Shown here one piece after another: positions 54,184-56,702 of a stretch of 64,000 nt of DNA. Origin of the DNA: an uncultured delta proteobacterium. GTDB taxonomy: Bacteria; Desulfobacterota; Binatia; UBA9968. Where the stretch lies: the NCBI GenBank assembly GCA_963737905.1, contig CAVTUQ010000026.1, positions 239,176 to 303,175 on the forward strand, in the 5' to 3' direction. The notes below the pieces were generated by a model. It worked only from the letters and a program-made list of their open reading frames with translations. It was not told where the DNA came from and did not search any database. Each line of letters opens with the position of its first letter. Within the stretch, counting starts at the first letter, position 1. A program made the translations under genes and the position numbers.

Positions 54184-54492
54184 ATGTGGTATTTGGTGCT
54201 TAGACGGCCGGTGAAACCGCGCGAGGAGTGGACCGTTACCTTGGATCAACATCTGGCGTGGATGAAACAACAGCATGAAGCCGGAAAAATTCTCTTCTCA
54301 GGCCCAACGCCGGATCGAAAGCTCGGCATTTATGTCATCCGTGCCGGATCGCGGCAAGAGGCGGAGAAGATCGCCGCCGGCGATCCGTACACCGCGGCCG
54401 GGTTCACTGCCTTCGACTTGATCGAGTGGGAGGTACATCAGATCATGGGCGCCGGGCCGTTCTCGGCGGCGGGATTGCAAGCTCACAAATAA
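54184..54492 (+). CDS. YciI family protein
   Basis: HLAW...GKILFSGP...DPY motif; GGAGG RBS. Confidence 0.85.
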   Translation: MWYLVLRRPVKPREEWTVTLDQHLAWMKQQHEAGKILFSGPTPDRKLGIYVIRAGSRQEAEKIAAGDPYTAAGFTAFDLIEWEVHQIMGAGPFSAAGLQAHK

Positions 54493-54527
54493 CCGCCAAA
54501 AAACCTCTGCGTTCTCATGAGGTCGAT

Positions 54528-54900
54528 ATGAACTCTCGAAACTACCGGGATCGTGTGGTCTTCGTTTCATTGTGCCTTCTGTTTAGCTTTTCGGTGCCGG
54601 CGGGCGCGCAGTCCGACTGGAAAAAGCAGTGGGAAACAGCCGTTGAGGCTGGGAAAAAGGAAGCGGAGGTCGTGATTTACGGACCGCACAACCCGATGTA
54701 CCAGCAACTGTGGGCCGTGTTTCAGAAAAGCTTTCCAGAGATAAAGTTCAATTTCGTTCCTGGCAAAGGCGCGGACCACTATCAACGTATCGTTGCGGAA
54801 AGACGGGCGGGAAAATATTTGGCGGACCTCGTCATGGGGGGATCTTCGAGTTTTGCATCCTTTCCGCCGGGGACGTTGGAGCCGTTGCTTCTCTTGCCGG
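54528..54900 (+). pseudogene. N-terminal fragment of iron/thiamine-type extracellular solute-binding protein
   Basis: WKKQWETAVEAGKKEAEVVIYG...RIVAERRAGKYLADL; similarity stops after ~125 codons. Confidence 0.72.
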
Positions 54901-55438
54901 AGGCAAGCGAGAAATCATTGACGACTGCATCGGCTTTTTGAAGGAACTGGCGCAAACAATCATTTGTCTTCCGGAGCCCTGGATGCCGAAAGCGTTCAAG
55001 ATCGCCGTGATCATGTATTCGACGGCGAACAATATCGTTACTGCGGAGATCTGTTCCTGGCTGACGGCTCAAGGCGCCGATCCAAAGCTGTTCTTGAAAC
55101 TCTTGCGAACGACCGGTTCTCAAGCCTCCGCCGCGCGCCTGGAAGAGTTCATGAAGCGCAACAATAACCACGGCGGAGCGCTAAGTAATAGCTACAAAGA
55201 CCTGCGCCAGGCGCTTGAGGTCGCAGCAGAGTTGCAGATCCCGATGCCATTGTTGTCGATGGCAAATCAGATCCAAGAAATGGGAAGGGCGAGCGGATTG
55301 TCGCGGCTAAACAGCCCGGCTGCGATGGGCAAGCTGTATGAATTAATCACGGACACGGATCTGAGCGCAGCGACTATGAACGTGGATAAGCATTTCCCCG
55401 AGAGTCGCGAGTCGAGGGTGGTTTACCTGGAGGATTAA
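54895..55438 (+). pseudogene. C-terminal fragment of 3-hydroxyisobutyrate dehydrogenase-like oxidoreductase
   Basis: LAGG...FK...AE...GADP...KDLRQALEVAAELQIPMPL helical domain; NAD-binding N-terminus and start codon absent. Confidence 0.68.
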
Positions 55439-55507
55439 GCAAAGCATCCGAAAAAGTTTGACCGTAAGAATTAAGAAATCATGCATCAGAAAAAAATAAA
55501 AAACGTC

Positions 55508-55536
55508 TTGACAAGAATGTTTTACAGCAGTAGGTA
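55508..55536 (+). promoter_or_regulatory. Putative sigma-70 promoter with A-rich UP element
   Basis: Perfect TTGACA, 17 nt, imperfect -10 TAGGTA; A-tract at 55490-55503. Confidence 0.6.
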
Positions 55537-55540
55537 GAAA

Positions 55541-55949
55541 GTGTGTCCTAAACCTCCCACTAGGGACCGGAAGAGTGAAGACAGTGCGCGCCTGTTGAAA
55601 CTCTTCTCAGAAATGGAGGTAACTCATGGTAGGGGAGAACAGTCCACCGGGCGAATATAGCCCGCCAAAGGCGGGCGCCAGCCATTCGGTCAGACATCTT
55701 GTTCGGCATCGAGCTGCCTGAAACAAGCCCTCAACCCTGGCACGTGAACGTGCCAGCTCGCTAAGGCGAGCAGATCAAGGAAGGACTTTCCCAAAGCAGA
55801 CTCGGAATCTCGCCGGCAGAGAGATATCGAATCAAATGGAAAGCGCCTTTGCTGCGAGGCGGGCACCACGAGAAAAACAGCGATTTCAATGACGACGCAC
55901 TAGCGTCACAAACGGGGTCTCGTTCTGCGGAAGGAGGCCCCGTTTTTTT
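55541..55949 (+). ncRNA. Candidate ~400-nt structured non-coding RNA, family not recognised
   Basis: At least 7 hairpins between a promoter and an intrinsic terminator; no long ORF; G-U pairs favour the + strand. Confidence 0.6.
55910..55949 (+). terminator. Intrinsic terminator
   Basis: AAACGGGGTCTC...GAGGCCCCGTTT stem ending in a T7 tract. Confidence 0.85.
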
Positions 55950-55994
55950 GTGCGCCTTTTATCCGTCAATTCCTAACGCTGGGGACCCGATTCT

Positions 55995-56702
55995 CTAGCG
56001 GAGCAGTTGACCGTAGCCGTCTATGGGAATTCTCATTGCCAATCTTTGCAGCACCCACCACAGGGAAGCTGCGGTGCTGGAAACGACTGGCCGCCCGCTG
56101 TCTTTTTCTAGCTCTTCAATGTAGGCGACAGAACGCCAGCGGCCCTGAATTAGAATTGCATCGACGGAAGGGCTTTCGAGAAAGAGGTTTCGAGCAACTT
56201 TGTAGGAGGCATAGTCCGGGAGCTTGACCTGATCGACGGGTTTTTTGACCTCTAACCCGGATATGCCTGAAACCTGAAACCCGGCGTCCTCGTAGTAGCG
56301 CTTCACAGCTTGGTTGATCTTTTCCATGTAAGCAGTGGCAATGACAATAGTTTTTGCTTTCAAATGTTTCAGCGCTTCGGCGCTGGCATTCATACCCGTG
56401 CTGATTGGAAGCCCCACACGTTCGGACAGCGTCGCGACCACTTCTTGCTCCGCTCCGTAGCCTCGCTGGGTGCCCAGCGTAATGCCGCCCAGGAGAATGG
56501 CGTCACATTCTTCCGCAGTGAAAATCCCCAATCCTTTCTCGAGAGCGTCGATGGCTTTGTTGAATTCTTCCGTCGTATGAGCCTGGACGTTGAGCCCTGA
56601 GGCAACGATTGTGAAACCCTTTGGGAGGATGTAATCCCAATCGGAGGGGGTTTCGAAAACCGATGGTGAAAGATATCCGATGCGTGCTTTCCAACCAGAC
56701 AT
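55995..56702 (-). CDS. Maleate isomerase/AMDase-like homolog
   Basis: WKARIGYLSPS, IATAY, LEKDSGRPVVSS...LWW, GYGQLL. Confidence 0.82.
   Translation of the reverse strand: MSGWKARIGYLSPSVFETPSDWDYILPKGFTIVASGLNVQAHTTEEFNKAIDALEKGLGIFTAEECDAILLGGITLGTQRGYGAEQEVVATLSERVGLPISTGMNASAEALKHLKAKTIVIATAYMEKINQAVKRYYEDAGFQVSGISGLEVKKPVDQVKLPDYASYKVARNLFLESPSVDAILIQGRWRSVAYIEELEKDSGRPVVSSTAASLWWVLQRLAMRIPIDGYGQLLR

Follow-up and report, generated by a model that had tools for sequence, protein, structure and literature searches.

The window analysed here, a 64,000-nucleotide (nt) stretch of a contig from a metagenome-assembled genome (MAG; 87.5% complete) of an uncultured bacterium of the Binatia, contains a self-contained transcription unit, for an RNA of some 400 nt, at positions 55508-55951 of the forward strand. 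It opens with a TTGACA box, continues through two 5′ hairpins into a structured body, and closes with a strong terminator directed toward a convergent gene. Our analysis places this element in an undescribed family of stand-alone RNAs and locates near its 5′ end a short open reading frame (ORF), in which a Pro-Pro stall site of the type relieved by elongation factor P (EF-P) lies a fixed 7 nt ahead of a long helix. We tentatively propose that the RNA is gated by a ribosome paused at this site; it is not purely non-coding. The first-pass annotation of this DNA had described a candidate "new large ncRNA class"; the undescribed, stand-alone family stands, but "ncRNA" is the wrong word for an RNA with a conserved Shine-Dalgarno (SD) sequence, start codon and mini-ORF, none of which that description mentioned.

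The mini-ORF, 31 codons followed by TGA (MVGENSPPGEYSPPKAGASHSVRHLVRHRAA), occupies 55626-55721 on the + strand, as do all features of the element given below, with its ATG at 55626 and its stop at 55719-55721. The SD sequence, GGAGG at 55615-55619, lies in an A-rich, unpaired stretch. Conservation was followed in an alignment of 23 full-length copies found by BLAST (A1), in 122 distinct full-length copies obtained by combining two pattern scans (among the matches listed), and in 47 divergent copies (A5) found with a covariance model of 198 positions (R1), for 43 of which the ORF could be parsed; none of these alignments, nor the ORF table of the divergent copies or any structural count, rests on the unpublished genomes G083, G006 and G066. 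Invariant in A1 are TTGACA, GAGG, UCC(A/G)CCGGGC, GCCCGC and CGG, and many further columns are nearly so. GAGG is thus present in 23 of 23 copies, followed after 4-9 nt by a start codon that is ATG in 22 and GTG in one; ATG starts the frame in 120 of the 122 copies, and an SD-like motif precedes the start in all 43 parsed divergent copies. Between the start and the Pro-Pro pair the 23 copies carry 4, 5 or 6 codons, always in frame, such that indels are whole codons; in the divergent copies the residues encoded there are mostly acidic (E/D). The frame measures exactly 31 codons in 16/23 and 75/122 copies. In the 122-copy set it ends with TGA in 109, and in 12 the tail is read in another frame, giving 40 residues, over the same conserved nucleotides. 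Among the parsed divergent copies the ORF ranges from 8 to 51 codons with unrelated tails, and in 3 of the 47 a stop follows PPG directly. To judge from these comparisons, what is conserved is the SD sequence, the start, a few acidic codons, Pro-Pro-X, the 7-nt spacer and the helix, and not a protein.

The stall motif itself, Pro-Pro-Gly encoded by CCA CCG GGC at 55644-55652, is represented by Pro-Pro in 23/23 aligned and 47/47 divergent copies, and falls at codons 6-7 in 37 of the 43 parsed divergent ones. In the main type these codons are almost fixed, and selection on the codons has to be argued from the divergent copies. There Pro-Pro is spelt by eight codon pairs, with the four C-C positions constant and both third positions varying. 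After the prolines, the 43 parsed copies carry G (22), D (10), N (4), C (3), E (2), K (1) or V (1), and the four unparsed ones C, D, G and D. PPD and PPE are strong stallers. As described in PMC5021804 and PMC11611912, PPG and PPN cause a ribosome arrest that EF-P relieves. The two proline codons with a strong-staller residue found here correspond in sequence to an EF-P-dependent XPPX site. According to PMC12856214 and 10.1101/2021.02.02.429294, proline and acidic residues near the N-terminus destabilise ribosomes, an effect exploited by the MgtL leader, and in E. coli CCA is, according to PMC8129111, the proline codon with limiting tRNA. Since the SD sequence, start and mini-ORF are conserved and Pro-Pro is kept through synonymous changes, ribosomes almost certainly read this RNA.

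A spacer of 7 nt (55653-55659) separates the stall motif from a helix in all 23 aligned copies, in gap-free columns, and in all 43 parsed divergent copies, where the helix begins with GCC(C/U)G(C/U). In the window's own minimum-free-energy (MFE) fold this is the base of a rod of about 200 nt, in which 55660-55717, corresponding to codons 12-31 of the mini-ORF, pairs with 55796-55864, the distal GGCGGGC (55858-55864) forming the end of the 3′ strand; a CGGGC-type motif occupies the distal position in most of 21 divergent copies inspected. The middle of the ORF (A1 columns 162-204) co-evolves with a variable segment (columns 303-356) that lies some 120 nt further 3′. When the two strands were folded as duplexes, segments of the same copy paired at -37.8 kcal/mol, compared with -29.2 kcal/mol for non-cognate segments from copies less than 75% identical, a gain of 8.6, and 33 of 76 copies ranked within the best 5%; three negative controls gave differences of 0.0 to +1.0 kcal/mol, and the arms of the second 5′ hairpin, used as a positive control, one of -3.3.

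Because the Pro-Pro stall signal sits just before the long helix, the RNA probably works through a paused ribosome. The mRNA entrance of the ribosome lies about 12-16 nt downstream of the P-site codon, as known from toeprint and helicase studies, and when the P site holds the second Pro codon (55647-55649) this entrance would coincide with the rod base at 55660; it is on this account that we propose a pause at the rod. In the model, a ribosome would load on the exposed GGAGG, make an acidic peptide of 7-9 residues and pause at Pro-Pro-(Gly/Asp/Asn), a motif of the EF-P-requiring type, with the rod base at or just inside its mRNA entrance. Efficient elongation, with active EF-P, charged Pro-tRNA and enough Mg2+, would let the ribosome unzip the rod and free its 3′ strand and the junction at its tip, while a ribosome that stalls or drops off would leave the rod closed. 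The RNA would then be a translation-gated riboregulator whose open or closed form acts on a titrated protein or a paired RNA. The more specific proposition, that this is an abundant RNA class with a built-in translation sensor, its EF-P-type stall site 7 nt before a 200-nt rod reporting translation status in trans, is a possibility that we regard with some doubt.

The element is present in RNA libraries. Parts of it occur in 20 sequencing runs from 12 studies, 18 of them RNA-library runs and some comprising only 8-13 million letters. Contigs of four runs from four soil and rhizosphere metatranscriptome studies, mapped on 55100-56400, all fall within 55550-55913; no RNA contig covers the flanks (55100-55539 and 55936-56400) in these four runs, which is not evidence that the flanks are silent. 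Summed word depth, which suggests high RNA abundance, reaches 1.37 million in one run (X1; 1,606 contigs with many variants) and 22,800 in another (X4), figures that are a poor measure of expression and give no ends, strand or level, as the runs were chosen for containing the element and only contigs were used. This is one of several points that weigh against the proposed mechanism. Translation, pausing and the switch are all deduced by comparison of homologues. The near-fixed Pro and Gly codons of the main type are explicable by constraint at the RNA level alone, the model that retrieved the divergent copies itself covers the Pro-Pro region, and the single copies with PPK and PPV carry weaker stallers. 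At the rod base, the bases of GCCCGC/GCGGGC (helix 4) are invariant, so covariation does not distinguish the rod from a local hairpin, GCCCGCC-AAA-GGCGGGC at 55660-55676 (-15.1 kcal/mol, z -3.6), and single-sequence folding predicts the rod base in only 52-60 of 121 copies.

Covariation in the fold is strong. The entire 418-nt stretch is more stable than its shuffles on the + strand (z -4.9, 0/100 shuffles equal) and also on the - strand (z -3.9). RNAalifold predicted 63 pairs on A1, 34 of them with compensatory changes, and a curated structure of 62 pairs in 10 helices was then counted on the same 23 copies. Its paired cells amount to 91.6%, against 84.3% in shuffles; changes on both sides occur in 43/62 pairs, against 19.3 in shuffles; and its covariation score of 0.328 compares with 0.186 for shuffled alignments, none of 500 of which reach it, and with 0.07-0.11 for slid partners. 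The helices supported in this way are both 5′ hairpins, a four-way junction, a small 3′ hairpin and the terminator. In a mutual-information ranking of column pairs clade signatures dominate, and only local helices stand out.

The first 5′ hairpin, H1 (GUCCU/GGGAC, 55545-55567, helix 1), has compensatory changes in 3 of 4 pairs with 88.9% of cells paired, and is missing from short-leader paralogues. Folded alone, neither it (z -0.2) nor the small GACGC hairpin (z -1.8) is outstanding by energy, but both covary among homologues. H2 (55569-55607; -15.1 kcal/mol, z -2.9) consists of an outer stem, GGAAGAGU/ACUCUUCU, and an inner one, GACAG/CUGUU, encompassing the earlier-listed pairing of GAAGAGT (55571-55577) with ACTCTTC (55600-55606) around ACAG/CTGT; all 11 pairs of its helices 2 and 3 show changes on both sides. 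Its loop holds a near-invariant palindrome, GCGCGC (55586-55591, A1 columns 85-90), which could mediate a loop-loop dimer or a tertiary contact. Two ways of masking the SD sequence were considered and rejected. The loop of H1 in this copy contains CCUCC, and its CCUCCC (55553-55558) is complementary to the RNA's own GGAGG, but a CUCC-type motif occurs in the H1 region of only 9/23, 51/121 and, in the divergent set, 5/21 copies, a minority, so sequestration by this loop is not general. A pairing of CUCUU with the SD sequence, predicted by RNAalifold, is accompanied by one-sided C/U changes only, and the same bases covary with GAAGAG.

At the tip of the rod, a four-way junction (55709-55805, helices 5-8) is built from UCGAGCUGC/GCAGACUCGG, AAGCCC/GGACUU and two hairpins at 55738-55755 and 55756-55771, with compensatory pairs in each helix; its helices are predicted in 75-113 of 121 single-sequence folds. 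The twin hairpins, CTGGCACG-TGAA-CGTGCCAG (55737-55756) abutting CTCGC-TAAG-GCGAG (55757-55770), reach -23.1 kcal/mol and z -5.1 when folded alone. Beyond the rod come an A-rich linker (55865-55893), A-rich in nearly all homologues, and the small hairpin GACGC-ACUA-GCGUC (55894-55907, helix 9), compensatory in 4 of 6 pairs and represented by a GC-rich equivalent in divergent copies. About half of the inner stems listed earlier are replaced in the consensus by the long-range rod. Thus CTTGTT..AACAAG with GGCA/TGCC, ATCTC/GAGAT and CGCCTT/GAGGCG are present in the sequence, but their bases enter long-range pairings across the family, and since the same bases form the rod we regard these three stems as local alternatives and not as family structure.

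How far the family extends depends on the sensitivity of the search. BLAST with the 456-nt element found clear homologues in the same family only, in 27/90 genomes, and model R1 places the element in 71/90 genomes and 21 of the 23 genera of that family, often with two or three matches per genome. Beyond it, R1 detects the element in 1 of 2 genomes of one further family of the class (f2) and, weakly, in 4 of 18 of another (f9); none of 8 genomes of a third (f3) has it. These tallies include unpublished genomes: G083 in 27/90 and 71/90, and G006 and G066 in 71/90 and in the 32/90 given below for 6S RNA. A pattern scan of species genomes returned at least 119 stretches, of which, among the matches listed, 28 were confirmed as true by nhmmer, the others being chance matches in GC-rich genomes. 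A stricter scan of metagenomes returned at least 120 contigs, mostly from soil studies judging by their names; motif invariance within this set is not evidence, because the set was selected by motif. Contig ends interrupt the element in several MAGs (L011, L030, L036, L045 and L047), and the RNA family may break short-read assemblies.

No known RNA accounts for the element. A search of the 64-kb window with Rfam 15 gave no match at gathering score, and in E-value mode the sole match within 55300-56100 was RT-6, on the opposite strand over the promoter, with 13.1 bits against a cut-off of 46.7 and an E-value of 6.1, which is chance level. This search, which the first-pass annotation had proposed after failing to recognise a known RNA, upholds its judgement; the homologue and covariation analysis that it also suggested returned homologues with strong covariation (0/500 shuffles equal), and the metatranscriptome check placed the element in RNA libraries of several soil studies. 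Transfer-messenger RNA (tmRNA) was rejected: ARAGORN finds no gene in 55300-56100, and a canonical RF00023 match lies elsewhere in the genome (C13:84582-84934, 196.6 bits). No description of this RNA was found in the open-access literature searched.

The alternative that survives best, though we consider it unlikely, is a housekeeping RNA that binds a protein in the manner of 6S, Ms1 or CsrB, in which the rod and junction titrate the protein and the mini-ORF only parks a stabilising ribosome near the 5′ end. The very large summed depths reached in RNA libraries from soil, the rod-like shape with invariant junction loops and the several copies per genome all fit such a role, as does the lack of a 6S match (RF00013) in the source genome, at 87.5% completeness, and in all 31 genomes of genus g16. 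The element itself does not match 6S, the region 55300-56100 giving no such match at E up to 10. In 32/90 genomes of the same family 6S does match; in the genera lacking a match, 6S has perhaps been lost or has diverged beyond the reach of the model. A replacement of 6S by the element was considered and rejected. By BLAST the two looked opposite in their distribution by genus, an artefact of search sensitivity, because the covariance model finds the element in most 6S-bearing genera, and in G004, G010 and G014 it coexists with a canonical 6S. Furthermore, simple stabilisation by a parked ribosome would need neither a spacer held at 7 nt nor a staller residue behind the two prolines.

It is improbable that the element is an ordinary small-protein gene, with the peptide of about 31 residues as its product and the RNA structure merely stabilising the mRNA. 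The conserved SD sequence and ATG, the recurrence of 31 codons in 16/23 and 75/122 copies, and conservative replacements (E/D/Q, S/T/N) are what such a gene would show, and gene callers have indeed predicted these peptides: a profile search of 1.84 billion representative sequences gave 32 matches at E up to 0.001, about 27 of them short proteins matching at the right place. The same search revealed no relatives beyond this element, and Pfam holds no family for the peptide. The variable ORF lengths, the stops directly after PPG and the tails read in the other frame also argue against a protein product. So does the tail at the nucleotide level, which is conserved regardless of reading frame and base-pairs with the 3′ segment. 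Selenocysteine insertion or read-through at the TGA was rejected as well: past the TGA, this copy has 56 further open codons and the 22 other homologues only 3-59, with no conservation.

The surroundings of the element bear on a further alternative. The downstream neighbour, at 55995-56702 on the - strand, is an Amdase-family gene of the Asp/Glu racemase superfamily (Pfam PF17645, E 2.4e-31). Main-type loci share the order HtrA-like (-), YCII (+), sometimes an ORF with an NAD_binding_11 domain (+), the element (+) and Amdase (-), the last convergent in 82 of 122; six loci for which 500 nt or more of downstream flank are available have no adjacent Amdase gene. It stands beside only one scanned divergent copy (L347), and the neighbours of divergent copies are unrelated to one another, with no common theme. 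On these grounds a functional link to neighbouring genes was rejected, and main-type synteny is attributed to vertical inheritance. As to the ORF immediately upstream (54710-55438), its sole match, over residues 95-199, is to NAD_binding_11, the C-terminal domain of 3-hydroxyisobutyrate-dehydrogenase-type enzymes; its relatives align only from about residue 57, and it overlaps a 171-codon ORF (54426-54941) with an N-terminal stretch that on inspection resembles a signal peptide. This upstream ORF may be a gene remnant, or its true start may lie elsewhere.

A cis-acting leader or attenuator, in which stalling would decide terminator read-through and so produce an antisense RNA to the Amdase gene, or downstream expression at other copies, is an explanation to which we attach little probability. 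In having a short ORF with stall codons the element resembles the mgtL, hisL and pyrL leaders, as outlined in PMC5021804, and the frequent convergence of the Amdase gene would provide an antisense target. However, the terminator is strong (-26.8 kcal/mol, seven U) and lies about 190 nt past the ORF stop, no alternative pairing that competes with it was found, and the element persists at the six loci without an adjacent Amdase gene and, in divergent copies, among varied neighbours. The paralogues L340, L342 and L344 (M-Q-D-G-N-P-P-N...) are more favourable: they have no T run after the last hairpin and are followed shortly 3′ by a same-strand ORF, which in L340 and L342 matches cytidine/dCMP deaminase, and this paralogue type might act in cis. 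A separate subtype whose SD sequence is preceded by little or no leader (M-D/N-E-G/E-I-P-P-G-Q-K-R-P-R-P-R; L346 and L355) has a same-strand diadenylate cyclase (CdaA) gene just downstream in two genomes. Finally, that the RNA is purely non-coding and its open frame an accident of conserved structure, as the nearly invariant four-fold degenerate sites of the main type and the overlap of the ORF tail with paired bases might imply, is very hard to reconcile with an invariant GAGG followed 4-9 nt later by a start codon, with indels of whole codons only before Pro-Pro, and with four CC positions constant in 47/47 divergent copies while both third positions vary freely.

The boundaries of the transcription unit are conserved along with its interior. 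An A-rich, UP-element-like tract (55490-55504), A/T-rich in most homologues and presumed to function as such, precedes the -35 box TTGACA (55508-55513), which is invariant in 23/23 aligned homologues and recurs as TTGAC upstream of the core in 21/21 inspected divergent copies. Seventeen nt past the box is a -10-like hexamer, TAGGTA (55531-55536), with an invariant TA and mostly G as the third base. We infer a transcription start at about 55541-55545; RNA contigs start at 55550 and 55554. The intrinsic terminator (55910-55951; -26.8 kcal/mol, z -5.9) has a 12-bp stem and an inner 3-bp stem, spanning 55910-55945, followed by UUUUUUU, and 12 of the 14 pairs of its helix 10 are compensatory. A simple scan for consensus promoters and terminators called neither end of the unit, which by a reading of its rules is explained by the absence of T at position 6 of TAGGTA and by the internal loop in the terminator stem. 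Most of the 21 inspected divergent copies keep the distal CGGGC-type motif, the A-rich linker, the small GC hairpin and the final hairpin with its T run, and some have a leader of only about 11-13 nt ahead of the SD sequence, without the 5′ hairpins. Inspection of 55490-55951 confirmed that the A-tract, TTGACA, stems and terminator listed in the first-pass annotation are where it had placed them, and its claim of a stand-alone unit agrees with the conserved promoter and terminator and with the convergent orientation of the downstream gene.

Binatia are widespread, uncultured soil bacteria, and the element joins two things that are usually separate, a large covarying fold of the housekeeping type and a stall ORF of the leader type. 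Should the paused-ribosome model be true, stall peptides would be used outside cis attenuation, gating an RNA that acts in trans, and the element would be a natural, compact reporter of EF-P and of proline-dependent elongation. Were the RNA also an abundant translation sensor, a major uncultured soil lineage would have in it a regulator at the housekeeping level, working by a principle undescribed for stand-alone RNAs. The family merits addition to RNA annotation, its 31-codon frame being sometimes called as a hypothetical protein.

Comparison with known systems helps to place the element. It is similar to tmRNA in size, abundance and its short internal frame, which often ends in ...RAA, but it lacks a tRNA-like domain and its frame has its own SD sequence and ATG. 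With 6S and the mycobacterial Ms1, which are abundant rod-shaped RNAs that bind RNA polymerase, it shares high abundance, a stand-alone gene and a long irregular rod; unlike the element, these RNAs have to our knowledge no ribosome-binding site or ORF. Dual-function small RNAs such as RNAIII/hld, SgrS/SgrT and SR1/SR1P are likewise independent units that combine a structured RNA with a small translated frame, and the element, too, has its own promoter and terminator and is present as RNA. Their peptides are functional products distinct from the base-pairing part of the RNA; in the element, conservation stops after the first 8-9 codons, and the remainder of the frame serves as a strand of the main helix.

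Closer parallels are found among leader peptides. Like the trpL, hisL and pyrL attenuators, the element has an SD-led mini-ORF with stall codons (GGAGG, ATG and Pro-Pro-X at codons 6-9) whose translation state would be read out through RNA pairing. Those attenuators use runs of the regulating amino acid, and the element's signal is Pro-Pro-X. Nor is there a regulated gene downstream on the same strand, the next gene being convergent and the neighbours of other copies varied. The folds examined show no terminator/antiterminator pair overlapping the ORF and no pairing that competes with the terminator arms; GCCCGC does have alternative partners, one local (55670-55676) and one distal (55858-55864). 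The MgtL/MgtP leaders of Mg2+ transporter operons in Salmonella and E. coli also have a very short ORF, with prolines and acidic residues, near the 5′ end of a structured RNA, and the choice between RNA folds depends on whether ribosomes pause or are lost at these codons, as set out in PMC12856214 and PMC5021804. They control a downstream gene in cis, through Rho or terminator read-through, whereas the element has its own strong terminator, a convergent gene behind it and copies in unrelated contexts, and adds a rod of about 200 nt and a four-way junction that these leaders lack. In its proposed mode of action the element comes closest to MgtL/MgtP and other leader-peptide systems.

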